DNA of 64,000 nucleotides from an uncultured Mycoplasmatota bacterium (GCA_948465965.1 CAOJYR010000003.1:8660-72659), one strand, 5' to 3'. Shown: positions 3,852 to 55,917, counted from the stretch's first letter. The notes: generated by a model not told the origin, from the letters alone. Made by a program: numbers and translations.

Positions 3852-3864
3852 ATCACCACTCCAA

Positions 3865-4719
3865 TTATTCTTTAGAAAATTCACATATTACTTCATAAAT
3901 ATTTAGGATATTTTCTTCTTTTTCAGCATTTTTATAATACTCTTTGATTATTTCTTTCATTATATCATTTTTTTTCGATGAGGTTAACTTTCTCTTATAA
4001 ATTCTATCTATCTTTTTACATACTAAGTGAATACTGTCTATATCATCTATTAACTTTTTAGAGTTTACTTGCATAATTCCTTGCTTTGTTTTTTTATTTG
4101 TAAACTTAAATTTAGTTGTATCTATTTTTCTAAGTATCAAGGGTCTATTATAGTTTTCATAGATCATTATAGAATAGATTAGGTTTGTTAGATTTTTGTT
4201 TTCTAAATCTATCTCTTCCTTATATCTGCTTTTGAACTTAGCATAATTTATGACTATATATTCCTCATTATCTAATACTTTCCTCTTAACCTTTTCTTCA
4301 CTTAGATTTGTCTTATCCTTAAAGAAGTTATACAAGAATAAAATGATAATTGTCCATATCACTATTCTTAATTCACTATTTTTAGGAAAAATATAATCCA
4401 TTCTATTAATAAAATAAGTATTCACTATATAGGAAATTATTATTAAAACGAAATAGAAAGTTATATTCTTTTTATCCTCTTTAAAAAAGTCTTCTGTCAA
4501 AAAATAGGTAGTATAAATCATATCAATAATAAATTCAAAAACTACCACTATAAAAATATTTTTGTTATTTGGATAAAATCCGGCAAGTAAGATTAATAAA
4601 ATAATAGTAAAAATAATTGTATTCATATCATTTAATAAATATTTTCGTTTTAAGTAATTTATACAAATTAAAAGTAAAATACTAAGTAGAAAGTAATATA
4701 TAAGCGTTGATAGAGTCAT
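3865..4719 (-). CDS. Hypothetical polytopic membrane protein (about 5 TM) with a charged cytoplasmic C-terminal domain
   Basis: Hydrophobic segments over the first ~150 aa and a K/E-rich C-terminal tail. No family recognised. Confidence 0.45.
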   Translation of the reverse strand: MTLSTLIYYFLLSILLLICINYLKRKYLLNDMNTIIFTIILLILLAGFYPNNKNIFIVVVFEFIIDMIYTTYFLTEDFFKEDKKNITFYFVLIIISYIVNTYFINRMDYIFPKNSELRIVIWTIIILFLYNFFKDKTNLSEEKVKRKVLDNEEYIVINYAKFKSRYKEEIDLENKNLTNLIYSIMIYENYNRPLILRKIDTTKFKFTNKKTKQGIMQVNSKKLIDDIDSIHLVCKKIDRIYKRKLTSSKKNDIMKEIIKEYYKNAEKEENILNIYEVICEFSKE

Positions 4720-6330: not shown

Positions 6331-7158
6331 TTACTTTGATTTTTTATATACTAATATACCTGATGTTGTTTCTTCGAACTGATTAAAGCTATAATTATTT
6401 TCTTTAAAGTACTCTAGTACATGGTCTTCTTTTTTATAGAAGTAGGAAAGTATTTCTCCATTTTCCTTTAAGTCTATTTTTTCTAGAGTCTTTTTATATT
6501 CTAATAAATTTACATAATAGATAATATTTGATAAATACACTAGATCATATTTGTTAGTTAATTTTCCAGAGAGATCTAGAAAATCACTTTGACAAGTATT
6601 TATATTTACTTTATCTACTAAGTCTTTTAATTTATTAAATTCGGTTTCTTCTAAATATTTATTTTCTCCTATTGTATAACTATTTGATATAGGATCATTT
6701 GAAAATAAAGCTGATTCGTATATTTCACACCAATCATAAAAATGAAATAAGCTATCCCAGAATTCTTTTGTATCTTTGGATAAATTTTTACTTATTAAAT
6801 CATACATGTCATCATATTTTTCGTCTGTTGTGATTCTATCAAAGAAAAATTCAATATACTCTTCTCTTGTTAGAGATTTTACCGCTGCTAGTTTCAAAAA
6901 CATAAAGTATTGTGGGAAGCTGCTTATATCAAAAGCATCTATATTTTCGGCACCTTCTAAAATCATATTTAAAATTTGATCAGATGAAGCAATTACACTT
7001 AATATATCCTTCTTATCTTTAAAGTATTTTAAATACTCTCTCATTCTTTCATTTGATTGTTTATAGATAGCTGATGTAGTATGGTGTAGATTCTTTTTGT
7101 AATTTGAACAGGACCTTTCCATTATCTTTTGTGCAATTATAATGTCATCTTTTAACAC
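6331..7158 (-). CDS. DUF3419-family protein, a putative SAM-binding domain related to the BtaA C-terminal domain
   Basis: The stretch ILSVIASSDQILNMILEGAENIDAFDISSFPQYFMFLKLAAVKSLTREEYIEFF resembles the conserved DUF3419 core (vL.ItSaGcNaL..L...V.AvD.np.Q.aLleLKlAa...L..eef..fF). Assigned from memory of the family pattern. Confidence 0.45.
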   Translation of the reverse strand: MLKDDIIIAQKIMERSCSNYKKNLHHTTSAIYKQSNERMREYLKYFKDKKDILSVIASSDQILNMILEGAENIDAFDISSFPQYFMFLKLAAVKSLTREEYIEFFFDRITTDEKYDDMYDLISKNLSKDTKEFWDSLFHFYDWCEIYESALFSNDPISNSYTIGENKYLEETEFNKLKDLVDKVNINTCQSDFLDLSGKLTNKYDLVYLSNIIYYVNLLEYKKTLEKIDLKENGEILSYFYKKEDHVLEYFKENNYSFNQFEETTSGILVYKKSK

Positions 7159-7239
7159 AAAACATCACCCCTTAAAGTGATGTTTATTCTATCATAATAT
7201 TTCTATTTTGAAAAGCTATTAAAATAAATTCTAGGATTT

Positions 7240-9144
7240 TTAATTTAATAGTAATCTTATCGTTCCTTGATCTTCTAATTTTTCTCCTGCTGCAGGAGAT
7301 TGTTCTACAACTTTATCTCCATTTCCAGAGTATTCTATTGTGAAATTTGGCAGTAGTTTTTTGGCTTCTTCTACACTTTTTCCCACTACATTTGGTACTT
7401 TATAAGTTACTTTGTCTGTCCATTCCAAATCTTTTTCCATTTCGCCTTCTTGTTTTTCAATACCTAAAGCATCAATTATATCTAGAAGAATACGTCTTGC
7501 GATGGGTGTTGTTGTATAACTTGATAAAAGGGCTGTGTTTTTTGGATTATCAATAGCTAGGTAGAAAACGGCTTCTGGATCATTTGATGGAACTACTGAC
7601 ATAAACGACATAATGTAGTTTCCTACCATATATTTCCCATCTTTTACTTTTTGGGCTGTTCCTGTTTTTCCTCCTATCCTATATCCTTCAATATATGCAC
7701 TTTTTCCCCCACCTTTTGCAACTACACTTTCTAATGCATGACGCATGATCGCTGATGTTTCACTGCTTATTACTTTTCTAACCTGGGTGGTACTGTACTC
7801 TTTGATAATAGTATTTGTTTCCTTTTCGGCGATATTTTTAACTATATAGGGTTTATTTAAGTACCCTCCATTTACTACAGCAGATACTGCGGTTACTTGT
7901 TGAATTGGGGTGACACTTACTCCTTGTCCAAAGGCTGTAGTTGAAAGTTCAACATTTCCAACCTTATCTAAATTAAAGATGATTCCTTCTCCTTCTCCAT
8001 TTAGATCAATTCCAGTTTTTTCTCCAAATCCAAATTTATCAATGTAGGAGAATAATCTTTCTTTGCCTAAAAGTTGGCCTAATTTTACAAATCCAGGGTT
8101 ACAAGAATTTTGTAATACTTGAAGGAAAGTTTGTTCACCATGACCTCCAGCTTTCCAACATTTTAATATTGATCCATCTACATTAACGCTTCCTGGATCG
8201 TAGAAATGATCTTTTTCTAGGTCCACTACTTTCTCTTCTACAGCTGATGCAGTTGTAATTATTTTAAATGTTGAACCAGGTTCATAAGATGACCAAATGG
8301 GAAGATTACGACTCAATGTTTCTTGTGAGAAATTTTGATAATTATTTGGATCATAGTCGGGGCGAGAGCCCATACCTAAAATCTCTCCAGTTTTTGGATC
8401 CATTACTATTGCAAGAGCCATATCTGGTGAAAACATGTCTACAATATTATCTAGTTCTCTTTCTAGGGACTTTTGAATATTTATGTCAATTGTTAAGGTT
8501 AGATTCATCCCATCTTGTGGCTCTACGTATAAATCAGATAAATTTAGTTTATTTCCTTTCGCATCAGAGAAATATTTTATGGCTCCACTTTTTCCTGTTA
8601 AATATTTATCATATTGAAGTTCTAACCCAGACAATCCTTGATTATCTATACCAACATAACCTAGGCTATGAGATAATATATTTCCATATGGATAATACCT
8701 TTTTGCTTCTTTTACAAGATATACACCATCAAATTCTAGGGCAGCAATTTTTTCAGCTATATCATATGATAATCTTCTTCCTTCAGGATGTACTCTTTCA
8801 ATTGATGTCTTTTTATAGACGTGTATTTTCATCTCTTCAAAAGTGACGCCCAAAATATCTGCTAACTTTTGAGTAACCTCCTTTTTATTTTTAATTTGAT
8901 TTGGTATAAGTACAAGGGATGTTGTCGTTAGGTTATCAGCAAGTACTACACCATTCCTATCTAAAATTAGTCCACGATTTGCCTCTATTGGTAGATCTCT
9001 ACTCCATAAATCAGATGCATACTTATTTAGTTTCTTATAATCAATCATTTGGATATAGAATACTCTTAGAATAATAAATATAAATAGTAATAACATAATT
9101 AAAAATAATAGTTTAATTCGCTCATCAATCTTTTTAAAAAACAT
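7240..9144 (-). CDS. spoVD: Class B penicillin-binding protein with a single C-terminal PASTA domain (SpoVD-like transpeptidase)
   Basis: N-terminal TM anchor and PBP dimerisation domain. Transpeptidase motifs are STFK (SxxK), SCN (SxN) and KTGT. One PASTA domain (VPNVVGKSVEEAKKLL...) at the C-terminus. Confidence 0.8.
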   Translation of the reverse strand: MFFKKIDERIKLLFLIMLLLFIFIILRVFYIQMIDYKKLNKYASDLWSRDLPIEANRGLILDRNGVVLADNLTTTSLVLIPNQIKNKKEVTQKLADILGVTFEEMKIHVYKKTSIERVHPEGRRLSYDIAEKIAALEFDGVYLVKEAKRYYPYGNILSHSLGYVGIDNQGLSGLELQYDKYLTGKSGAIKYFSDAKGNKLNLSDLYVEPQDGMNLTLTIDINIQKSLERELDNIVDMFSPDMALAIVMDPKTGEILGMGSRPDYDPNNYQNFSQETLSRNLPIWSSYEPGSTFKIITTASAVEEKVVDLEKDHFYDPGSVNVDGSILKCWKAGGHGEQTFLQVLQNSCNPGFVKLGQLLGKERLFSYIDKFGFGEKTGIDLNGEGEGIIFNLDKVGNVELSTTAFGQGVSVTPIQQVTAVSAVVNGGYLNKPYIVKNIAEKETNTIIKEYSTTQVRKVISSETSAIMRHALESVVAKGGGKSAYIEGYRIGGKTGTAQKVKDGKYMVGNYIMSFMSVVPSNDPEAVFYLAIDNPKNTALLSSYTTTPIARRILLDIIDALGIEKQEGEMEKDLEWTDKVTYKVPNVVGKSVEEAKKLLPNFTIEYSGNGDKVVEQSPAAGEKLEDQGTIRLLLN

Positions 9145-43256: not shown

Positions 43257-44402
43257 TTATTTTCTTTTTGTTTGTGAATCTTTTCTTATCCCATTTTCTA
43301 CACTTACTCTTTGTACCAAAGTTAAAGCGGCAATTAAACAGATCGTAAAACTTCCTCCATAACTCATAAATGGTAATGGTACTCCTGTCATTGGCATCAT
43401 TCCGAAAAGTCCCATTAGATTGACTGCTATATGTAAGAATATATATACTGCTACTCCATAGCAAATAGTTGCTCCCCTATTTGTAGAGCTATTTTTTCCA
43501 ATCATTAAAATTCGATATAACAAGAACATATAAAGTAAGATAATTCCTATAGCTAATATTACCCCTAACTCTTCCACGATTATAGCAAAGATAAAATCTG
43601 TATATGGTTCTGGAAGATATAAATATTTTTGGGTCGAATTTCCAAGTCCTACACCAGTTAAGCCTCCATTATTAATAGCTATATAACCATTACATACCTG
43701 ATTTCCGGTTGATAATAATTTACTACATGGATTAGTAAAATCAAAACGTTCTAATTGTCTTTCTAAGAGTAGGCCTTTTCCTGAACTCATTAAAACAATT
43801 GAAGCAAAACCGATTAGCCCTACTATTCCGAAAATTGTTTTTGATTTTATTTCCTTGTTTATTGGTGATGCTAGAAACACCACACCAACGATTACAGTAT
43901 AAATTATTGTTGTTCCAAGGTCTGGTTGTAAAAATATTAAAAGAGCAACACTACCACATACTGCTAGAGGAAATAGGCTCTTCACGTATGTATTTAACTT
44001 TTTTATATTTACTTCATAATATCTCGCTAACCATACTATTGTTATCACTTTGGCAAACTCACTTGGCTGAATGCTTATAGGTCCTAAGTCATACCAAGAA
44101 ATAGCCTGATTTTTTGATTGCCCTATTATTAAAAGACATAATAAACTGACAATAATGATTAATAATAGTCCCCAAGAAAACATCCCATATGCTTTTGTTG
44201 TGAATTTAATCATTATTAATGAAAATACAAACCCTATCACTAAGAATATGGCTTGCTTGATAAAATAATTATAAGGGCTCACTGCATGTGACATATAAGC
44301 TGTTACATTAGAAGCAGAAAACACCATAATTAGTCCAATTATAAAGAGTAATATAGATACTAATAGTAAAGGTTTATCAATATATTTAATAATTTTTTTC
44401 AA
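43257..44402 (-). CDS. ftsW: SEDS-family peptidoglycan glycosyltransferase (FtsW/RodA/SpoVE)
   Basis: 10-TM protein with the conserved SEDS C-terminal region (GTTIIYTVIVG..., PLPFMSYGGS). Confidence 0.85.
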   Translation of the reverse strand: MKKIIKYIDKPLLLVSILLFIIGLIMVFSASNVTAYMSHAVSPYNYFIKQAIFLVIGFVFSLIMIKFTTKAYGMFSWGLLLIIIVSLLCLLIIGQSKNQAISWYDLGPISIQPSEFAKVITIVWLARYYEVNIKKLNTYVKSLFPLAVCGSVALLIFLQPDLGTTIIYTVIVGVVFLASPINKEIKSKTIFGIVGLIGFASIVLMSSGKGLLLERQLERFDFTNPCSKLLSTGNQVCNGYIAINNGGLTGVGLGNSTQKYLYLPEPYTDFIFAIIVEELGVILAIGIILLYMFLLYRILMIGKNSSTNRGATICYGVAVYIFLHIAVNLMGLFGMMPMTGVPLPFMSYGGSFTICLIAALTLVQRVSVENGIRKDSQTKRK

Positions 44403-44540
44403 CTATATCACTCCATTCTATTATATAATATAGCATAAATTTCAATATTTTTGTAGATGTTGTTTTCTATAGATAAATTTTATTAACAATTTTTGTAAAT
44501 TTACATATTCTATAGTAGATTAAGTAAAGGAGGCAATGTT

Positions 44541-44705
44541 ATGTATTATTATGGTGGAGGATCTAGCTGTTGCGGAAATCAATCATATCAAATGCCATAT
44601 TATACTACTACTTGCTGTAGTAGTAATAATAACTCTAATTATGCAATTATATTAGTATTATTTATTCTATTAGTTATCATCATTGGATGCCGCTGGGGTG
44701 TTTAA
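44541..44705 (+). CDS. yjcZ: YjcZ-family small sporulation protein (54 aa, Cys/Gly/Tyr-rich N-terminus plus C-terminal TM helix). Not in the ORF track.
   Basis: Translation is MYYYGGGSSCCGNQSYQMPYYTTTCCSSNNNSNYAIILVLFILLVIIIGCRWGV. It has a strong AAGGAGG SD 7 nt upstream and a terminator hairpin downstream. The …A(L/I)I(V/L)VLFILL(I/V)I(V/I)G tail is the YjcZ family signature. Confidence 0.7.
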   Translation: MYYYGGGSSCCGNQSYQMPYYTTTCCSSNNNSNYAIILVLFILLVIIIGCRWGV

Positions 44706-44713
44706 TTTCATTT

Positions 44714-44745
44714 AACGTATAGATTTTTCTATACGTTTTTCTTTG
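44714..44745 (+). terminator. Rho-independent terminator of the yjcZ-like gene
   Basis: AACGTATAGA-tttttc-TATACGTT followed by a T-run. Confidence 0.65.
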
Positions 44746-44747
44746 AC

Positions 44748-44776
44748 TGAAAACTATTTCTATGTTATAGTATGCA
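44748..44776 (+). promoter_or_regulatory. Sigma-A-type promoter of def (TTGACT-N17-TATAGT)
   Basis: Near-consensus hexamers with 17-nt spacing about 100 nt upstream of def. Confidence 0.5.
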
Positions 44777-44879
44777 TTGTTTATGAGATGATTTTTATTT
44801 TTTCTTATGTTATATAAATATATTATTACTTTTCATTTCTTTATTTTTTTGATAAAATATACTTGCTAGAGGTGGTAGA

Positions 44880-45428
44880 ATGTTAAAAACAAAAGATATA
44901 TTAGATGAAAAAGACAAGCGTTTAAGGACTATTAGTAAGGAAGTAGAATTTCCTTTAACTAAAGAAGATAAAGAGTTAATTCATACTATGATTAATTACT
45001 TACATGATTCTCAAATTGATGAGTTGGCAGAAAAATATGATTTGAGACCAGGAATGGGACTTTCAGCCATTCAATTAGGTGTTGCGAAAAGATACTTTGT
45101 TGTTGTTAATGAAATTGATGAGGGCGAATTTGAAACTTATGTGTTAATTAACCCTAAAATGATCAGTAGTTCTGTTGAAAAGATTTATGTAGAAATGGGC
45201 GAAGGTTGCTTAAGTGTTAATCGTCCAGTTGATGGTATTGTTCCAAGATATGCTAGATGTACAATGGAGGCATATGACATGGAGGGCAGAAAGATTCATG
45301 TTAGAGCGCGTGAAGAGTTAGCTATTTGCTTTCAACATGAACTTGATCATTTAAATGGAATCTTATTTACAGATCATATAGATAAAAAGGATCCTTTTAA
45401 AGATAAAGACCAGATGAGGCCCATCTAG
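44880..45428 (+). CDS. def: Peptide deformylase
   Basis: The conserved motifs GxGxAAxQ (GMGLSAIQLG), EGCLS and QHExDH (HELDHLNG) are all present. Confidence 0.9.
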   Translation: MLKTKDILDEKDKRLRTISKEVEFPLTKEDKELIHTMINYLHDSQIDELAEKYDLRPGMGLSAIQLGVAKRYFVVVNEIDEGEFETYVLINPKMISSSVEKIYVEMGEGCLSVNRPVDGIVPRYARCTMEAYDMEGRKIHVRAREELAICFQHELDHLNGILFTDHIDKKDPFKDKDQMRPI

Positions 45429-45446
45429 TCTTTTTAATTTATTAAT
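45399..45446. repeat. Copy 1 of a ~48-60 bp direct repeat, covering the def 3' end plus its terminator hairpin AGACCAGATG-AGGCC-CATCTAGTCT
   Basis: It reappears at 48602..48649 with one mismatch. The flanking similarity decays over about 12 more bp upstream. Confidence 0.8.
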
Positions 45447-45454
45447 TTTACAAT

Positions 45455-46930
45455 TTACTCTTTAATCTTTTTTTCTTTTTTATTATAGATAAAATAACTT
45501 ATTATTGAAACTATTACTACTATCAATATCATAGCAATAATTATTATAACCGAATTAGTTTCAGGATTTTTTATAATATTGTTTATAATTCCATCGTTAT
45601 TTGAATCATCATTCGTAATATGGTATTTAGTAACTGAATATTTCATATTTTCGTCATAAAATTGGGTTTGAAATGTAGCTTGACAGGTTCGATATAATTT
45701 TACTGGAGTATTTAAAGCAATTGCTATTACTTTATCATTTTCTTTGTAAAAGATTGCACGTCTTTGAACATTTTCAAATCCATTAATATTTCCTACAGTG
45801 TAAAATATATCTAAATTATTCTTTTTACTATCAGTCATATTTTCTGTATACTTATGAATTGATGAATTATAAATCATAGTTTCGTTAGTAGAATCTAGTG
45901 TATATAAGTAAACTTCATTATCAATATAATCTAGGTCTGAGGCTAGTGTATTTATATTCTTTTCAACTTTACCATCTTTGTTAATAAAAATTGTACTACT
46001 TCCTGATGCAATATATCCATTATTAACCTCAATAATTTTGTTTATACTCTCATAATTTGTACTGCCATTTTTTGAATATCCACTATATTTAACGTAATAA
46101 TCATAGCTAATTTTTGTTTTACTTGAATCTATATATTTAAAATCCTTATCAAATTTTACAACACTTAATGCATAATCATATTTATCTTCCGATGCGTATC
46201 CGTTATTTTGTGTATCACTATATTTATAGACAACCAAGCAAATAATATTATCATCTTTTGTTTTGTTGATTGCTATGATTCTTGCTTCATGATAAAAGGG
46301 ATGTGTACAAGCACTTATATTTGTATTTAAAACGTTTGTCAACAAATCATTCCCATTTAGATAGCTAACAAAATTACCTTTTTTATCTATTTTAGCAATG
46401 ATTTTTTGATTGACATAACCAATGTCAACCCCACTGTTATTGTAGTTGGATTGGGCATATACTCGCTGTTTGCTATATGGAAATAGTATACCATCAGATA
46501 ATTCTATAATATTTTCTGTATAAGCTGTAGTTACATTAGAATTACTTGAATCTTTTAGATAATCCTTTTGCCATACTATATTTCCATTAAAGTCATATTT
46601 TGTAACATTTGAAGGATATGAATGCCATATTAATAACCCATCGTCTAATGCTTGTATCCTTGTTCCAGTTATTTTGTCCTTTTGCCATACTATATTTCCA
46701 TTAAAATCATATTTTGTAATGCTTGATGCTATATCTGCATTAGAACCCTCTACTTGCATTACGACAAAACCATCTTTTTGCTTTATTATTTGTGTGTCTG
46801 TAGAATCATAAATATTTAGTTCTTTACTCCACTCCTTTTCTGCCTTTGCTTCTACTTTTATGGTAGATATTATCAAAAACGCTGATGCTATTAATACTAT
46901 AATTGCTAATCCTCTTATTTTCTTATTCAT
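45455..46930 (-). CDS. Class B sortase substrate. It has a signal peptide, PQQ-like beta-propeller repeats (KYDFNGNIVWQKD twice) and a C-terminal NPETN sorting signal followed by a TM helix and a KKEKK tail.
   Basis: C-terminus reads …IIKNPETNSVIIIIAMILIVVIVSIISYFIYNKKEKKIKE. An N-terminal signal peptide is present. It is a paralogue of the 49667..51133 gene. Confidence 0.65.
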   Translation of the reverse strand: MNKKIRGLAIIVLIASAFLIISTIKVEAKAEKEWSKELNIYDSTDTQIIKQKDGFVVMQVEGSNADIASSITKYDFNGNIVWQKDKITGTRIQALDDGLLIWHSYPSNVTKYDFNGNIVWQKDYLKDSSNSNVTTAYTENIIELSDGILFPYSKQRVYAQSNYNNSGVDIGYVNQKIIAKIDKKGNFVSYLNGNDLLTNVLNTNISACTHPFYHEARIIAINKTKDDNIICLVVYKYSDTQNNGYASEDKYDYALSVVKFDKDFKYIDSSKTKISYDYYVKYSGYSKNGSTNYESINKIIEVNNGYIASGSSTIFINKDGKVEKNINTLASDLDYIDNEVYLYTLDSTNETMIYNSSIHKYTENMTDSKKNNLDIFYTVGNINGFENVQRRAIFYKENDKVIAIALNTPVKLYRTCQATFQTQFYDENMKYSVTKYHITNDDSNNDGIINNIIKNPETNSVIIIIAMILIVVIVSIISYFIYNKKEKKIKE

Positions 46931-46959
46931 AACCTACTCCTTATTGTATATTTATTGTA

Positions 46960-46989
46960 ATTATACCCCCCCCCCCACGTTTTTGTCAA
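46960..46989 (-). promoter_or_regulatory. Promoter of the surface-protein gene. It is consensus TTGACA-18nt-TATAAT with an 11-nt poly-G tract (poly-C on the plus strand, 46966..46976) filling the spacer. A putative phase-variation switch.
   Basis: The minus strand reads TTGACAAAAACGTGGGGGGGGGGGTATAAT, then 26 nt, then AAGGAG, then ATG. The plus-strand copy of the hexamer (TTGTCA) may also serve as the -35 of the divergent GT gene. Confidence 0.6.
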
Positions 46990-47044
46990 TTCTTTATTTT
47001 TTTCTTTTTATATGATATATTTTGATTAATTTAAGAGGTGAATT

Positions 47045-48574
47045 ATGAAATTAATTAAATTTAAAAATGCATTAACTTATACATTTTATATAACATTTGC
47101 AATAACCTTTACTTATTTATTTGTTTGCACTTTTATATATAAGGTTTCTTATAGTTATAGTTTAAATATGTTTATTTGCTTTATTATTGGAATATTTATA
47201 TTATTATTGTGGTATTTTATTTATAAAGTTATTAATAAATTTTATGACAGACTATCTAGTAAACAACAATTTTTGTTGTTGTTGTTTACTTTTATATTTT
47301 TCTGCTTTCTTATACTAACAATTTTGATTTGGCTGAAGCTAACACCAGATTGGGATTATCGTATAATATATGAACAGGCAAAAAGCTATGCTCTTTATGG
47401 GGATAGAACACACACTACCACTTCTCCTTCTTATTTTCAATACTATAATAATAACATTGGTTTATTTTTAATATTAGCGGGAGTTTTTAAGGTATGTTCT
47501 TTTATAGGAATTAAAGACTTTCTTACAGTGGCGACCATATTAAATGCTCTATTGGTTGGTTTTAGTATCTTTCTTTTATACCTTTGTATTAAGAAATTAT
47601 CAAATAAAAAAAGTGCTTTTTTTTCATTAATAGTAAGCTTATTTTTTATTCCTTTATTTACTTACATTCCTATGTTTTATACTGATACATTTTCATTACC
47701 TTTTGTTATGCTACTATTTTATTTATATTTATCTATTGATAGCAAAAAATTATTATCTAAAAAAAATATTATATTGTTTGCTTCTATTTTATTTGTAGCC
47801 TTTTTAGGAAGTAAAATAAAGATGACTGTTCTTGTTGTTTTTATTGCTTGTTTTATTCATTTTATGTTTACTAGCAAACTTAAATATACATTACTTTTGT
47901 TATTAATTATTACTGCTTTTTTTTCATTTTCATCCGTTCTTTGGGAAAAACTAGTATATGAAAATAAAAGCTTTTCATTTATTCAAAATGAGTATGGGCA
48001 CGTTCCATCGTCTCACTTTTTAATGATGGGTGTGCAAAGAAAGGATGACGATTTGGCTGGAATAAACTGTTTAGGGTGCTATAATCATGATGATTTTAAT
48101 CAAACTTTATTTTATAAGAATAGCAAAGAAGGCGCTAAGGCTGATATTAAGGAATATATTACTAGAGTAAGAGAGTATGGATTTAGCGGATATTTTATTT
48201 ATTTAAGTAAAAAGGCAGTTAATGCTTGGGGAGAAGGAAGTTATTTTAGTAATGTTGTTTATAAATTAAACCTTGCTGAAAATAATATAGCTAAAAAACT
48301 TATTATAGGAGAAGATAATAAAATTATTTTATATTTTCAACAAGGCGTTAGTGAAGCCATGTTGCTTATATTTGGTTGCTATAGTTTTATTATGTTTTTT
48401 AAAAGAAAAAAAATGGACACATCTACAATTATTCTAATCTCTATTTATGGGATGTTTGTTTTACTCTTATTTTGGGAAAATCGATCTCGATATTTATATA
48501 ATTACATACCTATATTTATTACCTTAATAACTTTATTTTACTATAATATAAATAAATTTAAATTAAAAAAATAA
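47045..48574 (+). CDS. Putative GT-C superfamily membrane glycosyltransferase (PMT_2/ArnT-like), copy A
   Basis: About 12 TM helices. The first extracytoplasmic loop carries PDWDYRIIYEQA, an acidic DxD/E motif typical of GT-C enzymes. 509 aa. AAGAGGTG SD. About 75% identical to the 51256..52788 gene. Confidence 0.45.
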   Translation: MKLIKFKNALTYTFYITFAITFTYLFVCTFIYKVSYSYSLNMFICFIIGIFILLLWYFIYKVINKFYDRLSSKQQFLLLLFTFIFFCFLILTILIWLKLTPDWDYRIIYEQAKSYALYGDRTHTTTSPSYFQYYNNNIGLFLILAGVFKVCSFIGIKDFLTVATILNALLVGFSIFLLYLCIKKLSNKKSAFFSLIVSLFFIPLFTYIPMFYTDTFSLPFVMLLFYLYLSIDSKKLLSKKNIILFASILFVAFLGSKIKMTVLVVFIACFIHFMFTSKLKYTLLLLLIITAFFSFSSVLWEKLVYENKSFSFIQNEYGHVPSSHFLMMGVQRKDDDLAGINCLGCYNHDDFNQTLFYKNSKEGAKADIKEYITRVREYGFSGYFIYLSKKAVNAWGEGSYFSNVVYKLNLAENNIAKKLIIGEDNKIILYFQQGVSEAMLLIFGCYSFIMFFKRKKMDTSTIILISIYGMFVLLLFWENRSRYLYNYIPIFITLITLFYYNINKFKLKK

Positions 48575-48601
48575 AGGAATAAGATTGATAAAGGAAAGTT
48601 C

Positions 48602-48649
48602 AAAGATAAAGACCAGATGATGCCCATCTAGTCTTTTTAATTTATTAAT
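48602..48649. repeat. Copy 2 of the def-3'-end/terminator repeat. It acts as a bidirectional terminator between GT copy A and the sortase gene.
   Basis: aaagataaagaccagatgaTgcccatctagtctttttaatttattaat. It retains a degenerate def C-terminal reading frame (KDKDQMMPI*). Confidence 0.8.
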
Positions 48650-49629
48650 GCTGCGTGAACAACTAACCGACCTGTATTATTATCATTACAAGTTGATAGT
48701 GTTAATATATTAGTAGTATTTGAGATATCATAATTAAAGTCATATATTGTTCTGTTTTTTAAAGTCTTTATAAATTCTTTATAGTAATACTCTGAAGTAA
48801 ATTCATTTGCTAAATAATATGTTTCTGTTTGAACTTCATATATGGAAAAAATATTCCAATTATAAATTTTACTGCTTGTCTTTAAGTTGATTAAATGACT
48901 ACTATTTTCTTGCCATTCTTTTGTAAATAAATTGGAAATTGTTCCAAACATTGTTTTGTTTAATAGATGATGTCCATAAATAATACTATTTTTCTTTAAG
49001 TTTTCTAAATCATTTCTATAATCACCAAAAATGCTACCATTTTTATTATATGTTTTATTAAAAGAATGGTTTAAATAATACTCATTGTCAGTAGATTGAA
49101 CTATTGGGTAATTTATATTTGTTTTATCTACTCTAATCCACCCTACTATATCACTGTTTTCCTTTTTTAAATCCAATATATTTATTTCTTCAATAGGCAT
49201 ATTTTGATATTTTTCATATCCTTTTTGCTTTTCATTGTTGTTATATAAATCTTGGTCTTTGCTTTCTTTTTCTGTATTTTCTGTACTATTCTTATCCTTT
49301 TCTTCTGCTGTACCAACATTACTTTCAGGCGCTAATTTAGTTACCCTAAGTGGGGATGTGGGAATCACAAAGTTAATTATACATACAATTGTCACAACTG
49401 CTACTGCTACTATTAAGGTTATTTCTGTCTTGTTTTTTAGTGTTTCTATTACCTTATCTAGCTTAGAAAATTTTCTCTTTCCAAAAAGAAATGGGATAAA
49501 TATAATAATATTATATACTATATCCCAGCATAGATTAATGAAATAAGTAAATAAACTAGTAACAAAGGTTACATGTAAGTCAATTAAAAAGATTAATATT
49601 TTCTTTAAAGTATTTAACATTTTCATCAT
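48637..49629 (-). CDS. srtB: Class B sortase (SrtB) with an extended N-terminal membrane region
   Basis: Catalytic TLSTC motif (ILTLSTCNDNNTGRLVVHAALI), an upstream His (IYGHHL) and a conserved Arg in RLVVHA. About 330 aa. Confidence 0.7.
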   Translation of the reverse strand: MMKMLNTLKKILIFLIDLHVTFVTSLFTYFINLCWDIVYNIIIFIPFLFGKRKFSKLDKVIETLKNKTEITLIVAVAVVTIVCIINFVIPTSPLRVTKLAPESNVGTAEEKDKNSTENTEKESKDQDLYNNNEKQKGYEKYQNMPIEEINILDLKKENSDIVGWIRVDKTNINYPIVQSTDNEYYLNHSFNKTYNKNGSIFGDYRNDLENLKKNSIIYGHHLLNKTMFGTISNLFTKEWQENSSHLINLKTSSKIYNWNIFSIYEVQTETYYLANEFTSEYYYKEFIKTLKNRTIYDFNYDISNTTNILTLSTCNDNNTGRLVVHAALIN

Positions 49630-49666
49630 ACTATCTTTCCTTTATAGAATTAAACTTCTTGTAATT

Positions 49667-51133
49667 TTACTTTTCTTTTTTATGCTTTTTATTATAAAAA
49701 TAATAACTAAGTGCTGATACTCCAACTATTATTACTACAAACACAATAATCATTATAATAGAATCTGTTTCAGGATTTTTGATTATGTTTTCTATTATCC
49801 CATTATTACTTTCTTCTTCGTCTGTAATACGATACTTTGTAACTGAATATTTCATATCTTTATCATAGAATTGAGTTTGCAAAACAGAACTAGATCCACG
49901 TACTAATTTTACAGGTGTATTTAAAACAATCACATATACGTCTTCACCAGATTTATAAAATATTGCCCTTCTATATAATGATCCAAATCCTTTGGTATCT
50001 GCTGCTATATAAAATGTATCTAATTTATTACTCCTTTGTAGCTGCATATTTGATGTATATTTATGAATTGCAGAATTATAAACTAGTGTCTCATTTGTAG
50101 GCTCTATTGCATATAAATATATATTGTCATCAAGATAATGCATATCTGTTGATACCGTATTTATGCTTTTTTGCATTTTTCCTTCTTTATCTATATATAC
50201 TGTGGAGGCGCCCGAGGCTACATATCCGTCATTGATTTCTATAATATTATTGAATCCACCACTACTGTTATAGCTACTATATAATGCAAAATGAGCTTCG
50301 TCGATATCTTTCATTACTGTTTGTTGGTATTTCATATTCTTATCATACTTCACTATACCTAATGCATACTTGTAGTCATATGCAGGGTTTCCAAAAGATA
50401 ACCAACTATTACCTACATTATCGCTATAGGCAAATAATGTCAAAAATATTATGTCACCATCTTTTGATATGTTATACCCTGCAATTTTTGCATATCTGGT
50501 ATATGTACTTAAATTATCTGTCTTTGGCATAAATTTAAAAAACTGTGAATAATCAATTGTGTAAGAGGAGATAGAGCCATTTTTATATATTTTTAATGCG
50601 GCCATACTATGTGGATTTCCATTTCCATTATTTCCATTTCTATACATTATAGAGGATTGCTCCCACTTTATTATATATCCATCATCAACTTCTACGATAT
50701 TATCTGCAGTTACTCTTACTTCCTGTTTTCCATTCAATCCGCCATCAAAATCAGTTTCTTTGATCCATACAGCATTGCCATCTTTATCATATTTTGCAAT
50801 TCTAAATTTTCCTATATTGCCATTTCTCCATACAAGGAACCCATCTGATACTCCCTGTATCCTATTACCAAAGTTATTTTCTTTTTCCCATATTTTATTT
50901 CCATTAAAATCATACTTTGTAATGCGATTCTTTAAGTCTCTTACTGATCCTTCTATTTGGAATATTATAATACCATCCTCTACTTTAACTATTTCAGTTT
51001 CAGTAGAATCATAAATATCTAACTCCTTATTCCAAACCTTTTCTGCCTTTGCTTCTACCTTAATCGTTGGAATTAATAAAATTGCTAGAATTATTAATAG
51101 TATTAATTTTTTTGTTATTGCTTTATTCTTCAT
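49667..51133 (-). CDS. Class B sortase substrate, paralogue B. It has a signal peptide, PQQ-like beta-propeller repeats and a C-terminal NPETD sorting signal with a TM helix and a KKHKKEK tail. Probably co-transcribed with srtB.
   Basis: C-terminus reads …IIKNPETDSIIMIIVFVVIIVGVSALSYYFYNKKHKKEK. Its N-terminal 40 aa and C-terminal ~90 aa are nearly identical to the 45455..46930 protein, while the central region is diverged. Confidence 0.65.
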   Translation of the reverse strand: MKNKAITKKLILLIILAILLIPTIKVEAKAEKVWNKELDIYDSTETEIVKVEDGIIIFQIEGSVRDLKNRITKYDFNGNKIWEKENNFGNRIQGVSDGFLVWRNGNIGKFRIAKYDKDGNAVWIKETDFDGGLNGKQEVRVTADNIVEVDDGYIIKWEQSSIMYRNGNNGNGNPHSMAALKIYKNGSISSYTIDYSQFFKFMPKTDNLSTYTRYAKIAGYNISKDGDIIFLTLFAYSDNVGNSWLSFGNPAYDYKYALGIVKYDKNMKYQQTVMKDIDEAHFALYSSYNSSGGFNNIIEINDGYVASGASTVYIDKEGKMQKSINTVSTDMHYLDDNIYLYAIEPTNETLVYNSAIHKYTSNMQLQRSNKLDTFYIAADTKGFGSLYRRAIFYKSGEDVYVIVLNTPVKLVRGSSSVLQTQFYDKDMKYSVTKYRITDEEESNNGIIENIIKNPETDSIIMIIVFVVIIVGVSALSYYFYNKKHKKEK

Positions 51134-51255
51134 AATAAATGCTCCTTATCGTCTATTATATATCTACATTATCCTCTTTTAAAATCAATTTGTCAATTCT
51201 TTAATTTTATTTTTTTTTGTGATATATTGTGATTAGCATTTGGGAGTGATGTAAT

Positions 51256-52788
51256 TTGAGATTAGAGAAACTTAAAGGTATATTGATCTATATATTTTAC
51301 ATAGTATTTGCTATTACTTTTAGTTATATATTTGTAACTACATTTATATATAATGTTTCTTATAATTATAGTGTAAATAAGTTTACTTGTTTTATAGTTG
51401 GAATTTTTATATTTATAGTATGGTATTTTATTTATAAAGTTATTAATCAGTATTATGATAAATTATCTCCTAAGCAGGAATTTCTCTTATTATTATCTAC
51501 TTTTATTATCATTTCTTTAATTATATTAATGATTTTAACCACACTAAAATTAACTCCTAATTGGGATTATCATATAATATATGAGCAAGCAAAGAGTTAT
51601 GTTCTATATGGTGATAGGTATCATACGACAACATCCCCTTCCTACTTTCAATATTATAATAACAATATTGGTTTATTTTTGATATTGGTAATAATTTTTA
51701 AATTTTGTCACTTTATTGGTATTTCAGATTTTATCACTGTTATGACCATTATAAATGCCATCTTGGTAGGTATTAGTATATTACTTCTCTATCTTTGTGT
51801 TAGAAAATTACTCGATAAAAAGAAGGCATTTTTTTCATTAGTTATAAGCTTATTTTTTGTTCCATTATTTACATATATTCCTATGTTTTATACTGATACA
51901 TTTTCGTTGCCATTTGTGATGTTAGTACTTTATTTATACTTATGTATTGATAAAGACAAAATTTTTTCTAAAAGGAATATTGTATTATTCATCTTTCTTC
52001 TAATAATAGCCTTTTTAGGTAGTAGGATAAAGATGACCATTTTGGTTATTTTTATCGCCTGCATTATTCACTTTATTTTTACTAATAAAATTAAGTATAT
52101 ATTTTGCCTATTATTAATAACCTGTTTGTTTTTTTCTATCTCTTCATTCTTCTGGAAAACCTTAATATATGAAAATAAGGAATTTGATTTTATACAAAAT
52201 GATTATGGTAATGTACCTCTTACTCATTATTTAATGATGGGTGTTCAAAGAAAAGATGATGACTTATTAGATGTTAACTGCTTAGGTTGCTATAACCGCA
52301 ATGATTTTGCTTTAACGTTTTCTTATTATAATAGTAAAGAAGCATTTAATTATGATATGCAGGAATATTTGAGAAGAGTAAAAGAATATGGTATACTAGG
52401 TTACTTTAACTATCTTTCAAGAAAGGCAGTTAATGCCTGGGGTGAAGGAAGTTATTTTAGTGATTTCGTGTATCGTTATAACTACAATTCAACTTATAAT
52501 AATAGGTTTAGAAAACTAGTTATTGGTGACTCTAATAAAACTTTATTATATTTTGAACAAGGCGTTAGTGAAGCTACGTTACTTATATTTGGTTGTTATG
52601 GTTTTATTTTATTAGTTAGAAGAAAGAAAATAGATAAATCTACAATTATACCAATTTCCATATATGGAATGTTTATTGTACTTTTATTCTGGGAAAATCG
52701 ATCTAGATACTTATATAACTACATACCTATTTTTATTATATTAATCACATTATTTTATCATAATATTATTGAAAAAAAGTCAGTATGA
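51256..52788 (+). CDS. Putative GT-C superfamily membrane glycosyltransferase (PMT_2/ArnT-like), copy B, with a TTG start
   Basis: Same motif set as copy A (TPNWDYHIIYEQA). GGGAGTG SD before the TTG. Confidence 0.45.
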   Translation: MRLEKLKGILIYIFYIVFAITFSYIFVTTFIYNVSYNYSVNKFTCFIVGIFIFIVWYFIYKVINQYYDKLSPKQEFLLLLSTFIIISLIILMILTTLKLTPNWDYHIIYEQAKSYVLYGDRYHTTTSPSYFQYYNNNIGLFLILVIIFKFCHFIGISDFITVMTIINAILVGISILLLYLCVRKLLDKKKAFFSLVISLFFVPLFTYIPMFYTDTFSLPFVMLVLYLYLCIDKDKIFSKRNIVLFIFLLIIAFLGSRIKMTILVIFIACIIHFIFTNKIKYIFCLLLITCLFFSISSFFWKTLIYENKEFDFIQNDYGNVPLTHYLMMGVQRKDDDLLDVNCLGCYNRNDFALTFSYYNSKEAFNYDMQEYLRRVKEYGILGYFNYLSRKAVNAWGEGSYFSDFVYRYNYNSTYNNRFRKLVIGDSNKTLLYFEQGVSEATLLIFGCYGFILLVRRKKIDKSTIIPISIYGMFIVLLFWENRSRYLYNYIPIFIILITLFYHNIIEKKSV

Positions 52789-52808
52789 TAATCATGCTGA
52801 CTTTTTAT
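52771..52808. terminator. Bidirectional terminator between GT copy B and smc
   Basis: Near-perfect palindrome GTCAGTATGAT/ATCATGCTGAC flanked by A- and T-runs. Confidence 0.65.
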
Positions 52809-55759
52809 ACAATTTCTTTTCTTTCATCAAGTTTTACACTAACAAGTTTTGATACACCCGATTCTTGCATTGTAATACCATATAGAGTGTTTGCATATTC
52901 CATCGTTTTTTTCTTATGTGTAATGATTAAAAATTGCGTTTTATTTTTATAATGATCTAAATATTTTCCAAACTGGGAAACATTTGCTTCATCTAGGGCA
53001 GCTTCCACTTCATCAAATAGGCAGAATGGTACCGCTCTTACATTAAGAATTGCGAATAATAAACTGATTGCTGTTAGGGTTTTTTCTCCACCCGATAATA
53101 GTGATATTGTTGTTAATTTTTTACCTGGAGGGGATGCTACGATCTCAACTCCTGTTGTCAGTAAGTTGTCTGGATCGGTTAGTTTTAAATCAGAATTACC
53201 TCCACCAAATAACTCCTTAAAAACTGCTTTGAATTCTTTTTGGACTTTCTCAAATGTTATTTTAAATTCCTCTTTCATAACATCATCCATCTCATTCATA
53301 ATTTCTAATAGTGTATCTTCTGCTTTTAGAAGGTCTTCTCTTTGATTCGTTAGAAAGACATATCTTGCATTTACCTTTTCATATTCCTCAATAGCGGCTA
53401 AGTTTACCATACCAATTCGCTTGATATTTGCTCTATAGGTATTTACTTTTATTCTAGCTTCATCTGGATCAATATCTAATTTGTAATCTCTTTTGGCTTT
53501 CTCAAAAGTTAGCTCATATTCTTCACCCAAAGTATTTAGCATAGTATCAATCTTAACATCTAATCTATTTATTACTATTTCTTTTTCACGCGATGTTTTC
53601 TCTAAATTACGTAAAGTAGAGTTTTGTAATTTTGAAGAAGCTGTGCGTTTTTCTATTTTTTCTTTTAAGGCATTAATTTCTTCACTTAAATTAGAAATTT
53701 TATTAATAATAGATTCCTTTAAAGTATTTTTTTCATGATACAACTTAATTAGTTCTTGTTCTTTTTTATCTAATGAGTTGCTATTTATAGCCTCTAGACT
53801 CTCGTAATCTCTAGTTAGCTTATCGAGTCTTTCTTTTTGGTGCTTTAGCTCAGTATTTTTATTATCATACTTTTCTTTTAATGTAACCTTCCTTTTAGAA
53901 ATTAGAAACTCTTCTTCTTCTAATTTAGTAATTTCTACTCTAACGTCTGCTAGCTCATTATCAATTTCTAATTGTTCTTGTTTTAAAAGTTCTATTTTCT
54001 CTGTTATATGTTTTAAATCTTGTTTTAGGCTAATAATACTTTTTGTGTGATACGTTGATCCTCCGGACATTGAACCACCGACGTTAATCACATCACCATC
54101 TAATGTTACAATTTTATAACGACCTTTGATTAAGTGACTTAGCCTTGTTGCGCTATCAATATCAGGTGACACTACTACTGTTCCTAATTGATTTTCTATA
54201 ATATGTTTATATTTTTGATCATATGTTACTAAATCACTTAATACTCCTATAAAGTCACTACTCGATTTCATTATACTTAAAGTATTTGCGTCTACATATC
54301 TTTGTTTAATTATAGAAAGAGGAAAGAAAGTAGCTCTACCTAGATGGTTATCTTTTAAATAATTAATTGCTTTTTTGGCAGATAATTCATCTGTTGTAAT
54401 GATAAAGTTTTTATTCGATGCTATAGCAATATTTAATGCCTTCATAAATCTATCCTCGGTAGATAAAATATTACCAATCGTATTATGAATTCCTGTTAGG
54501 TTTGTTGACTTTAAAATGTTTCTAACGCTATTCGGTAAATCTCCTCCTGCTTCTATGTCTCTTTGTAAAGATTCCATTTTATGTTTTAGAGAGATAAGCT
54601 CTTTTTCATGTGAGGAGTAATCATTGTTTAACATATTCTTTTTGACTTTTAATTTATCAATTTTTTCTTCAACTTCTGTAGAATTTTTATCTTCCCTTTT
54701 AGCATTATCAACAATCACTTCTAACTCTTCTTTTAAAAGTTTTATACTTCCATCAAGTAATGATTTTTCCTCTAAACTCTTTCTTATTTCCTCTTTTAAT
54801 TCCTGTTCTTCTTTTGTTGTTTTACTTCGTTCTTCTAATAAGTTTCTTTCACCATTTATTCTTTCTACTTCAGCAGTGATATCTAATAACTTCTTATTTA
54901 ATTCTGCTTTTTCTTTTTCTTTCTTTTCTAAACTGTTATTGTCGTTTATCTCTTCTGCATCATTTTTAGAAGTTTCTGCTCCAATATTTAAAATCTCTTT
55001 ATCTAGTTTTTCTTTTTCTTTCGTTGCAGTTTCCAATTCGATATTAGCATTTTCAATATCATATGCTAACAAAGCAACTTCATAGGTATCTAAGCCTCTT
55101 TTGTTTTCTAAATAAACTTTTGCCTTTTCACTTTGCTCTTTTAGTGGCCCTACTTGAAGCTCTAACTCAGAAATAATATCATTTACGCGATCTATATTAT
55201 TATGTGTTCTATCCAGTTTTCTTAAAGCTTCTCCTTTTCTTTTTTTGTATTTCAATATTCCGGCTGCTTCTTCAAATATTACTCGCCTATCACTTGCTGA
55301 GTCACTAAGAATCTTTTCAACTTCTCCTTGGGAAATAATATTAAAGGATTCTTTCCCCATTCCAGAATCAATTAAAAGATTAGTTAAGTCTTTTAAACGA
55401 CATTTTTCGCCATTTAGGTAGTATTCATTTTCACCACTTCTATATACTCGTCTTTTAATAGAGATTTCTGTATAAGGAACATTTAAAAAGTGATCACTAT
55501 TATCAAATACTAATTCTACTGATGCGACATTTAAAGGATTTCTACTCTTACTTCCGGAAAATATTACATCACTCATAGAACCTTCTCCACGAAGGGATTT
55601 TACGGATTGTTCTCCCAATACCCATCTAACGGCATCAACAACATTGCTTTTACCTGAACCATTTGGTCCGACTATACAAGTCGTTTTATCGTCTAATTTG
55701 ATATTTAATTTATCCGCAAAAGATTTAAAACCACTTGCCTCAATTTCTTTTAAGTACAT
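52805..55759 (-). CDS. smc: Chromosome segregation protein SMC (984 aa, shorter coiled-coil arms than usual)
   Basis: N-terminal Walker A GPNGSGKSN, hinge GRATFFPLSIIK, C-terminal signature LSGGEKTLTAISLLFA and Walker B LFDEVEAALD. Start trimmed to MYLKEIEASGFKSF with a GGTGAAGAG SD. Confidence 0.85.
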   Translation of the reverse strand: MYLKEIEASGFKSFADKLNIKLDDKTTCIVGPNGSGKSNVVDAVRWVLGEQSVKSLRGEGSMSDVIFSGSKSRNPLNVASVELVFDNSDHFLNVPYTEISIKRRVYRSGENEYYLNGEKCRLKDLTNLLIDSGMGKESFNIISQGEVEKILSDSASDRRVIFEEAAGILKYKKRKGEALRKLDRTHNNIDRVNDIISELELQVGPLKEQSEKAKVYLENKRGLDTYEVALLAYDIENANIELETATKEKEKLDKEILNIGAETSKNDAEEINDNNSLEKKEKEKAELNKKLLDITAEVERINGERNLLEERSKTTKEEQELKEEIRKSLEEKSLLDGSIKLLKEELEVIVDNAKREDKNSTEVEEKIDKLKVKKNMLNNDYSSHEKELISLKHKMESLQRDIEAGGDLPNSVRNILKSTNLTGIHNTIGNILSTEDRFMKALNIAIASNKNFIITTDELSAKKAINYLKDNHLGRATFFPLSIIKQRYVDANTLSIMKSSSDFIGVLSDLVTYDQKYKHIIENQLGTVVVSPDIDSATRLSHLIKGRYKIVTLDGDVINVGGSMSGGSTYHTKSIISLKQDLKHITEKIELLKQEQLEIDNELADVRVEITKLEEEEFLISKRKVTLKEKYDNKNTELKHQKERLDKLTRDYESLEAINSNSLDKKEQELIKLYHEKNTLKESIINKISNLSEEINALKEKIEKRTASSKLQNSTLRNLEKTSREKEIVINRLDVKIDTMLNTLGEEYELTFEKAKRDYKLDIDPDEARIKVNTYRANIKRIGMVNLAAIEEYEKVNARYVFLTNQREDLLKAEDTLLEIMNEMDDVMKEEFKITFEKVQKEFKAVFKELFGGGNSDLKLTDPDNLLTTGVEIVASPPGKKLTTISLLSGGEKTLTAISLLFAILNVRAVPFCLFDEVEAALDEANVSQFGKYLDHYKNKTQFLIITHKKKTMEYANTLYGITMQESGVSKLVSVKLDERKEIV

Positions 55760-55917
55760 ACTCTTCACCATGTTAATTATACTATAAAATTCTTTTTCAA
55801 ACAACACTATCTTTTGATAGAAAAAGAAAAAAAGATATAAAATCCTCTACTATGTTATTGGTACCCTATTTTTTCTAAAATTATAGATATATAATTATAT
55901 ACTAGAATATAATCATT

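Follow-up and report, generated by a model that had tools for sequence, protein, structure and literature searches.

The window analysed here, a stretch of 64,000 nucleotides (nt) from an uncultured Mycoplasmatota bacterium (GCA_948465965.1 CAOJYR010000003.1:8660-72659), contains a five-gene cluster in which two genes for surface proteins, surfA and surfB, and two genes for membrane glycosyltransferases, GT-A and GT-B, are arranged around a class B sortase gene, srtB. The open reading frame (ORF) of surfA lies on the minus strand (45455-46930, 491 amino acids, aa) and is divergent from GT-A on the plus strand (47045-48574, 509 aa). Beyond srtB (48637-49629, minus strand, 330 aa) the same arrangement recurs with the surfA paralogue surfB (49667-51133, minus strand, 488 aa) and the divergent GT-B (51256-52788, plus strand, 510 aa, TTG start). 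All five ORFs are found where a preliminary description of this DNA had placed them, and the two-unit architecture that it proposed is borne out by the collinearity of the units at the DNA level. The cluster is bordered by def (44880-45428) on one side and by smc (52805-55807) on the other, its GC content of ~0.25-0.28 is the same as that of its flanks, and no integrase is found nearby, on which grounds a prophage or mobile-element origin was rejected. We interpret it as a chromosomal locus for surface proteins in a gut bacterium that is uncultured, low in GC and of Bacilli type.

For surf as well as for GT, the closest relative of each copy is the one in the other unit of the window. Positions 46635-48549 and 50838-52766 are 74% identical over 1940 nt, a block that spans the 5' end of surf, the intergenic region and the entire GT gene, and the surf 3' ends (45466-46042 and 49674-50251) share 69% DNA identity; the middle of surf is too diverged to give a blastn match between the copies. 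At the protein level, GT-A and GT-B are 70% identical (352/504), less than the ~75% given in the preliminary description. SurfA and SurfB share 44% identity overall, with 55% in residues 2-100, 30% in residues 101-300 and 56% in residues 301-491. This agrees with the earlier statement that the surface proteins keep their ends and diverge in the middle, but lends no support to the diversifying selection to which that divergence was attributed: the ratio of nonsynonymous to synonymous substitutions (dN/dS) is 0.41 for surf overall and 0.63 in its middle, which, with saturated synonymous divergence (dS), shows no positive selection there. Since dS between the copies is ~1.2, the duplication must be old, and the dN/dS of 0.17 for the GT genes indicates that both copies have been maintained. 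The two units are thus best read as an old duplication inside this lineage, with both GTs apparently kept by purifying selection.

SurfA consists of a signal peptide, a predicted ~7-blade beta-propeller, a short stalk of acidic and Asn residues and a C-terminal cell-wall sorting signal (45458-45568, minus strand), in which NPETN (residues 455-459, nt 45554-45568) is followed by a hydrophobic helix and the tail KKEKKIKE. The corresponding signal of SurfB comprises NPETD (residues 453-457, nt 49763-49777, minus strand), a transmembrane (TM) helix and a basic tail. No other ORF in the window has a sortase-type C-terminal signal; an MPMTG match in FtsW, which appeared under a looser regular expression, was discarded as an evident false hit. 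Across 14 aligned surf members N455, P456, T458 and S460 (SurfA numbering) are invariant, and all full-length representatives end in NP[QED]T[NSD]S, followed by a hydrophobic helix and a basic tail. The NPET(N/D) signals recognised in the preliminary description, on whose conservation it had made its reading depend, therefore belong to a motif that is conserved in every full-length member. The commonest form in the family is NPQTN, the canonical SrtB motif of Staphylococcus aureus.

An AlphaFold model of surf, calculated from a six-sequence alignment, is all-beta with ~28 strands in four-strand groups (predicted local distance difference test, pLDDT, 70; predicted template modelling score 0.70), and its top Foldseek matches are all beta-propellers, including BACCAC_01654, NHL domains, BtuG and pyrroloquinoline quinone (PQQ) dehydrogenases, with a best E value of 6e-8. 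The propeller fold proposed earlier is supported by these matches. As no PQQ family model matches surf in a Pfam scan at E<=1, however, the term 'PQQ-like' applies to the fold only; distant sequence matches of surf carry PF13360 or PF06739. Surf proteins are rare: when 1.84 billion cluster representatives were searched exhaustively with a profile, 28 matched at E<=1e-30, and several of these are fragments. This search set the size of the family; word-indexed searches, first with surfA and later with a profile built from 14 sequences, had found only six members and missed the paralogues of the type present at the related locus L085. Among paralogues, the N-terminal third is near-identical, the centre hypervariable, and the C-terminal stalk and signal are conserved, a pattern less expected of an enzyme than of a surface or binding protein that varies. 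Together, these data strongly support the view that surf is a small, fast-diverging paralogue family and that SurfA and SurfB are Sec-exported SrtB substrates with ~7-blade propellers.

Two further observations concern sortase substrates in related genomes. L002 encodes a third putative SrtB substrate (3237-4415, 392 aa) with an NPQTA end, a TM helix and a basic tail, which contains a CBM26 starch-binding module (32.8 bits, cut-off 28.1); the sortase there would therefore serve more than the propeller family. A single-base deletion (ATGCAATAT to ATGAATAT) in L088 (6014-7377) breaks a surf paralogue into ORFs of 65 and 389 aa. The gene was considered as a second site of phase variation and dismissed, because the deletion lies outside any repeat; the split gene is a pseudogene or reflects a sequencing error.

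The srtB product scores 165.5 bits against TIGR03064 (cut-off 153.75) and stays far under the cut-offs of other sortase classes. Its closest solved relatives are SrtB of Bacillus anthracis (5e-37), Lmo2181 of Listeria monocytogenes and the 'NPQTN specific sortase B' of S. aureus (9e-33). In the alignment of residues 134-329 with the B. anthracis enzyme (2OQW, E 5e-37), TLSTC, which holds the catalytic cysteine, and the Arg-containing RLVVHA coincide, and YGHH stands opposite YGHR. The assignment as a class B sortase with a TLSTC motif, already made in the preliminary description, is thereby strongly supported. The gene starts 37 nt downstream of surfB, with which it is probably co-transcribed. 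Homologues with the same N-terminal extension occur inside surf arrays of L002, L085, L086/L087 and L088. This extension (residues 1-130 in the window; genes at L002 4749-5933, L085 4608-5699 and L088 7394-8434) adds a hydrophobic block in front of the usual membrane anchor, with the conserved pattern FFINL.W..VYN..IF.PFL.GKR, which typical SrtB enzymes lack. The enzymes of the relatives additionally carry an acidic repeat region of 30-70 aa (EIELL..DD).

GT-A and GT-B had been described as PMT/ArnT-like glycosyltransferases with 12 TM helices. The threshold of PMT_2 (PF13231), 26.1 bits, is exceeded by GT-B (32.8 bits) but not by GT-A (22.2 bits), and no YfhO model matching the GTs is found among the Pfam or NCBIfam hits at E<=1. 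TIGR03766, the model of an XrtG-associated glycosyltransferase, aligns over the full length of both proteins with 72 and 89 bits at a cut-off of 500; judging by these alignments, GT-A and GT-B are homologous to TIGR03766 proteins without being members of the equivalog. An association with the exosortase XrtG was looked for inside the window only, and a literature search on XrtG yielded nothing useful on the GT family. Precomputed annotation places GT-A (as P0010) and its homologues in PF27792. We know of no characterised function for PF27792/TIGR03766-like proteins.

A GT-family profile matched no sequence in the PDB, and the structural placement came from fold comparison only. The AlphaFold model is confident (pLDDT 91) and has a polytopic membrane fold of ~13 helices, rather than exactly 12, that matches solved GT-C enzymes (glycosyltransferases of the GT-C fold). 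Its best structural matches are GT-Cs that use polyprenyl-phosphate-monosaccharides, and its top structural neighbours include the lipid- or glycan-modifying enzymes ArnT and AftB. The earlier assignment is thus upheld at the level of the GT-C fold. Nineteen residues are invariant in 26 GT homologues, all of them kept in GT-A, and include D104 of a W-D-[YF] motif. D104 lies in the first large loop, past the third helix; its outside location is predicted from helix counting and the positive-inside rule, and it may correspond to the catalytic Asp of ArnT or PMT.

The promoter of surfA (46960-46989, minus strand), a feature absent from the preliminary description, consists of TTGACA, an 18-nt spacer and TATAAT, and is the only 12/12 sigma-70 match in 44400-53000. 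Its spacer reads AAAACGT followed by a G11 tract (C11 on the plus strand, 46966-46976), which is the sole G/C run of at least 7 nt in the 64-kb, 28%-GC window, where 1e-4 such tracts would be expected. The same layout, TTGACA...G(n)...TATA[AC]T, recurs in front of eight homologous surf genes, where the tracts are G6, G7, G8, G12, G13 (three promoters) and G14, so that the spacers of the nine promoters range from 11 to 21 nt. For one identical protein, P0005, the tract is G13 in the L003 metagenome and G6 in the L004 metagenome. Homopolymers in promoter spacers mediate phase variation of Neisseria porA and opc (poly-G/C) and of Mycoplasma hyorhinis vlp (poly-A). These sequences argue strongly for surfA as a candidate for phase variation through slipped-strand switching of the G tract. 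The tract has been lost upstream of surfB and in L085, L091 and L092. The surfB promoter (51168-51196, minus strand) has TTGACA, a 17-nt spacer and GATAAT, an 11/12 match with no homopolymer tract; it is presumably fixed in the ON state and would also drive srtB. The sortase would stay expressed because surfB has no tract, a 17-nt spacer and a distance of only 37 nt from srtB.

A scan of metagenomes of the Joint Genome Institute (JGI) for TTGACAAAAACGTG7 returned two unrelated loci only and added no data on tract length. On one unrelated low-GC contig, L095 (5455-5474; JGI Ga0123355_10047887), the promoter-like string TTGACAAAAACGT-G12 stands upstream of a gene for a 132-aa membrane protein, and the promoter motif with a G tract may be used more widely. 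Several assemblies break near surf: L002 (1-83), L098 (1-83) and L004 (1-111) start just upstream of a surf promoter, and L097 ends just after its surf gene. P0003, P0004 and the second L002 copy, all from one genome, are almost the same in promoter, signal peptide and the first ~110 residues. This suggests that the breaks are repeat-driven and that the shared 5' regions leave scope for recombination between paralogues. In L003 (3878-11407) and L097 (3821-11425), an NPQTN surf gene with a poly-G promoter is remote from all GT-C genes and comes immediately after a pilus-type cluster with genes for a VWA adhesin, a protein with a SpaA domain and a sortase of 250 aa.

The association of GT and surf genes extends beyond the window. 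All GT homologues of at least 48% identity with a readable context are divergently paired with a surf gene. The gene order is GT, three surf genes (NPETS) and srtB in L085; GT, surf, surf, srtB and surf in L086/L087; and GT, surf, srtB and the frameshifted surf in L088. In L089, GT and surf (NPDTS) are accompanied by a GtrB homologue (5EKP, 7e-63) directly downstream of surf, after which comes a gene of the GH25 lysozyme family (region 6712-8509). L091 has surf, GT and smc, as at the right edge of the window, and L092 has surf, GT and surf, both surf proteins ending in NPQTN. The idea that NPET signals go with the presence of a GT and NPQTN signals with its absence was rejected, because in L092 an NPQTN surf gene lies on either side of the GT. 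The seven GTs linked to surf cluster exclusively with one another, being at least 48% identical to each other and at most 41% identical to 76 others, and are found in three or more chromosomal settings: def...smc for the window or smc for L091, mgsA...holA in L085-L088, and GH25/GT2 in L089. An exclusive GT cluster in at least three neighbourhoods implies that the GT/surf linkage is conserved and moves as a unit. The tight 1:1 pairing noted previously is, on the other hand, specific to the window, where it results from the local duplication; in relatives, a single GT accompanies between one and three surf genes.

On this basis we propose, with about as much to be said for the model as against it, that the GT-C enzymes glycosylate the surf precursors outside the cell, that SrtB anchors them and that surfA is switched by its G tract. 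The surf precursors would be exported via Sec and remain tethered by their C-terminal helix. A polyprenyl-phosphate-sugar (Und-P-sugar), the product of a GtrB-type GT2 whose gene would lie outside the window, would serve as donor, and GT-A and GT-B would move the sugar from this donor onto the tethered proteins at the outer face of the membrane. SrtB would then cut after the Thr of NPET(N/D) and link surf to peptidoglycan, and slippage of the G tract would alter the surfA spacer length and turn the promoter on or off. The outcome would be glycan-decorated, wall-anchored and variable surface proteins. Within this scheme the role of surf as SrtB substrate is well supported and the phase variation is strongly suggested by sequence; that the surf proteins would be the acceptors of the sugar we infer only from their conserved linkage with the GTs and from two precedents described below, Pgf/Cnm and GtrB/PgtC2. 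Held more tentatively than the model itself is the broader interpretation that a dedicated PF27792 GT-C subclade O-glycosylates SrtB-anchored, phase-variable propellers at the outer face of the membrane and, combined with poly-G switching and the diversification of paralogues, would serve antigenic variation in uncultured gut Bacilli.

Several observations speak against this model. The glycan, the acceptor site and the donor are all putative. The stalks of the window proteins, ITNDDSNNDG and ITDEEESNNG, contain two Ser/Thr residues each and are not Ser/Thr-rich; some surf relatives, such as P0090 of L089, have Ser-rich stalks. The propeller model reaches only moderate confidence, the promoter calls are consensus matches only, and part of the variation in tract length between assemblies may come from misassembled homopolymers. 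Some surf paralogues have no GT within 10 kb, and no GtrB or GtrA gene is present in the 64-kb window, nor in the surf-linked loci except L089. The wider GT family, surveyed with one genome per species (568 loci), adds to this. In the neighbourhoods of its best 80 loci (25-40% identity, 10 kb range), none of the 80 has a sortase or a surf homologue, so that the earlier coupling of the GT with sortase substrates stands for the homologues of at least 48% identity and fails for the wider family. The commonest neighbour is instead a GtrB-like GT2 of ~310 aa with C-terminal helices, found in 46 of the 80 loci and mostly adjacent, followed by GtrA, an ABC-2 (TagG-like) transporter and an acyltransferase-3, with further GT-C-like genes; fusions of GtrA and GT2 also exist in the family. 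Such a context is characteristic of the three-component systems that glycosylate wall polymers from an Und-P-sugar, a multi-component transmembrane process that has been reviewed (PMC8035078).

It is from this family context that the most serious alternative draws its strength, namely that the GT-Cs decorate a wall glycopolymer (teichoic acid or wall polysaccharide), that surf is not glycosylated and that the two are neighbours since both shape a variable surface; the glycan could be the ligand or the environment of the propeller, for instance, or both could be under shared phage or immune selection. Together with the reviewed precedents for wall polymers, the lack of Ser/Thr-rich regions in the window proteins and the position of the L093 GT (42% identity) among polysaccharide-type glycosyltransferase genes fit this explanation, which we nevertheless consider doubtful, if clearly possible. 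The GTs linked to surf make up a separate subclade, whose divergent order with surf has been kept over three chromosomal settings, their loci adjoin no glycopolymer genes except for the GtrB homologue and GH25 of L089, the GT was duplicated along with surf in the window, and a polymer-decorating enzyme has no obvious need of a surf partner.

The case for a coupling of any kind is positional throughout, comes from only seven linked loci in one narrow clade of related uncultured Bacilli, and coexists with surf genes that are unlinked to a GT. GT and surf might accordingly have stayed side by side through simple inheritance of a small variable islet, with the window as a plain segmental duplication and no functional link between the two. 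That this is the whole explanation is improbable, because the linkage persists at 48-59% GT identity and ~30% surf identity and survives the move to other places on the chromosome, purifying selection acts on both GT copies (dN/dS 0.17), and the divergent promoter region lies inside the conserved duplicated block. The clustering of GT-C, SrtB and substrates, and the presence of ArnT and AftB among the structural neighbours, would also agree with a GT-C that modifies the anchor site (lipid II, peptidoglycan or a glycolipid acceptor of SrtB), the substrates being joined to a modified wall position. In L089, however, where GT and surf are both kept, the 10 kb upstream of the GT contain no sortase gene (downstream, the contig stops after 1.4 kb), a sortase is likewise missing from the short contigs L091 and L092, and nothing in the sequence points to a peptidoglycan acceptor. 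We know of no precedent for such a modification either, and give it very little credence.

Glycosylation of the surf proteins themselves, the model preferred here, has its nearest precedent in Streptococcus mutans, where the Pgf system (PgfS, PgfE, PgfM1 and PgfM2) acts on the adhesins Cnm, CnaB and CbpA, with PgfS and PgfM1 glycosylating sortase-anchored adhesins encoded in the same cluster (PMC12041528). In Streptococcus pyogenes and Streptococcus pneumoniae, GtrB and PgtC2 glucosylate extracytoplasmic regions of proteins, and the targets of both Pgf and PgtC2 are Ser/Thr-rich disordered regions (PMC12041528). The locus described here resembles Pgf/Cnm in the clustering of GT-C genes with genes for sortase-anchored proteins, and it would share with both systems extracytoplasmic glycosylation and, as donor, an Und-P-sugar from a GtrB-type GT2; L089 has a GtrB homologue beside surf. 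It differs from Pgf in its GT, which is PF27792/TIGR03766-like with a PMT_2 signal and lacks a YfhO-type match, in its class B sortase and NPxT(N/D/S) signals instead of class A and LPXTG, and in its short-stalk propellers instead of collagen-binding adhesins with long Ser/Thr-rich regions. Moreover, the window contains no epimerase and no GT2, and the system is known from sequence alone. The novelty claimed in the preliminary description for a GT paired with a sortase substrate is narrowed by the Pgf GT-Cs (PMC12041528).

The closest homologues of the sortase are found in Isd-type loci (srtB-isdC with NPQTN in S. aureus, NPKTG in B. anthracis, svpA-srtB in L. monocytogenes), which likewise place the sortase gene beside a few dedicated substrates with an NPxT(N/G)-form signal, exactly NPQTN in most surf members. 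In contrast to these loci, the substrates here are not haem receptors with NEAT domains but form a novel beta-propeller family, the ORFs that flank the cluster (the only ones translated) include none for the transport of haem or iron, srtB has an extra N-terminal hydrophobic extension, and the locus includes a GT-C gene and candidate phase-variable promoters. The CsbB/GtcA/YfhO teichoic-acid, lactococcal Csd and phage GtrABC systems (PMC8035078) provide the comparison for the wider PF27792 family, which occurs in the same context. The GTs of the window resemble the enzymes of these three-component systems in fold and in their best structural matches, polyprenyl-phosphate-monosaccharide GT-Cs, but their subclade has SrtB substrates in place of the GtrA/GtrB neighbourhood. 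With porA, opc and vlp the locus shares a long homopolymer between the -35 and -10 elements of a surface-protein gene, a tract length that varies by paralogue and sample, and, in surf, tandem diverging paralogues. The difference lies in the host, an uncultured low-GC Gram-positive lineage, in the sortase B anchoring of the proteins, and in the phase variation here being read from DNA sequence only.

Class B sortase loci, three-component GT-C glycosylation, GT-C glycosylation of anchored adhesins and promoter-tract phase variation are each known separately. To our knowledge, the combination of a distinct GT-C family, a new family of SrtB-anchored propellers and poly-G promoters in uncultured small-genome Bacilli has not been described. 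If the proposed model is correct, the locus would represent the first case of protein glycosylation linked to substrates of a class B sortase, and a second, independently recruited GT-C family for the glycosylation of Gram-positive surface proteins, beyond the YfhO-type enzymes of streptococci. PF27792/TIGR03766-like proteins would in that case gain their first testable acceptor, and the five-gene locus is compact enough to be rebuilt in a model Firmicute. The poly-G tracts point to phase-variable sortase-anchored proteins in poorly known small-genome gut Bacilli, which bears on the evasion of phages and host immunity.

Two minor observations concern the genomes at large and the GT-A coding sequence. 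Spore-related genes in the relatives (YunB, and SpoVA in L003) show these to be spore-formers with a normal wall. A terminator-like hairpin with a 13-bp stem and a T-run lies at 47258-47290 of the window, ~210 nt past the start of GT-A, and may be a chance occurrence in AT-rich DNA.

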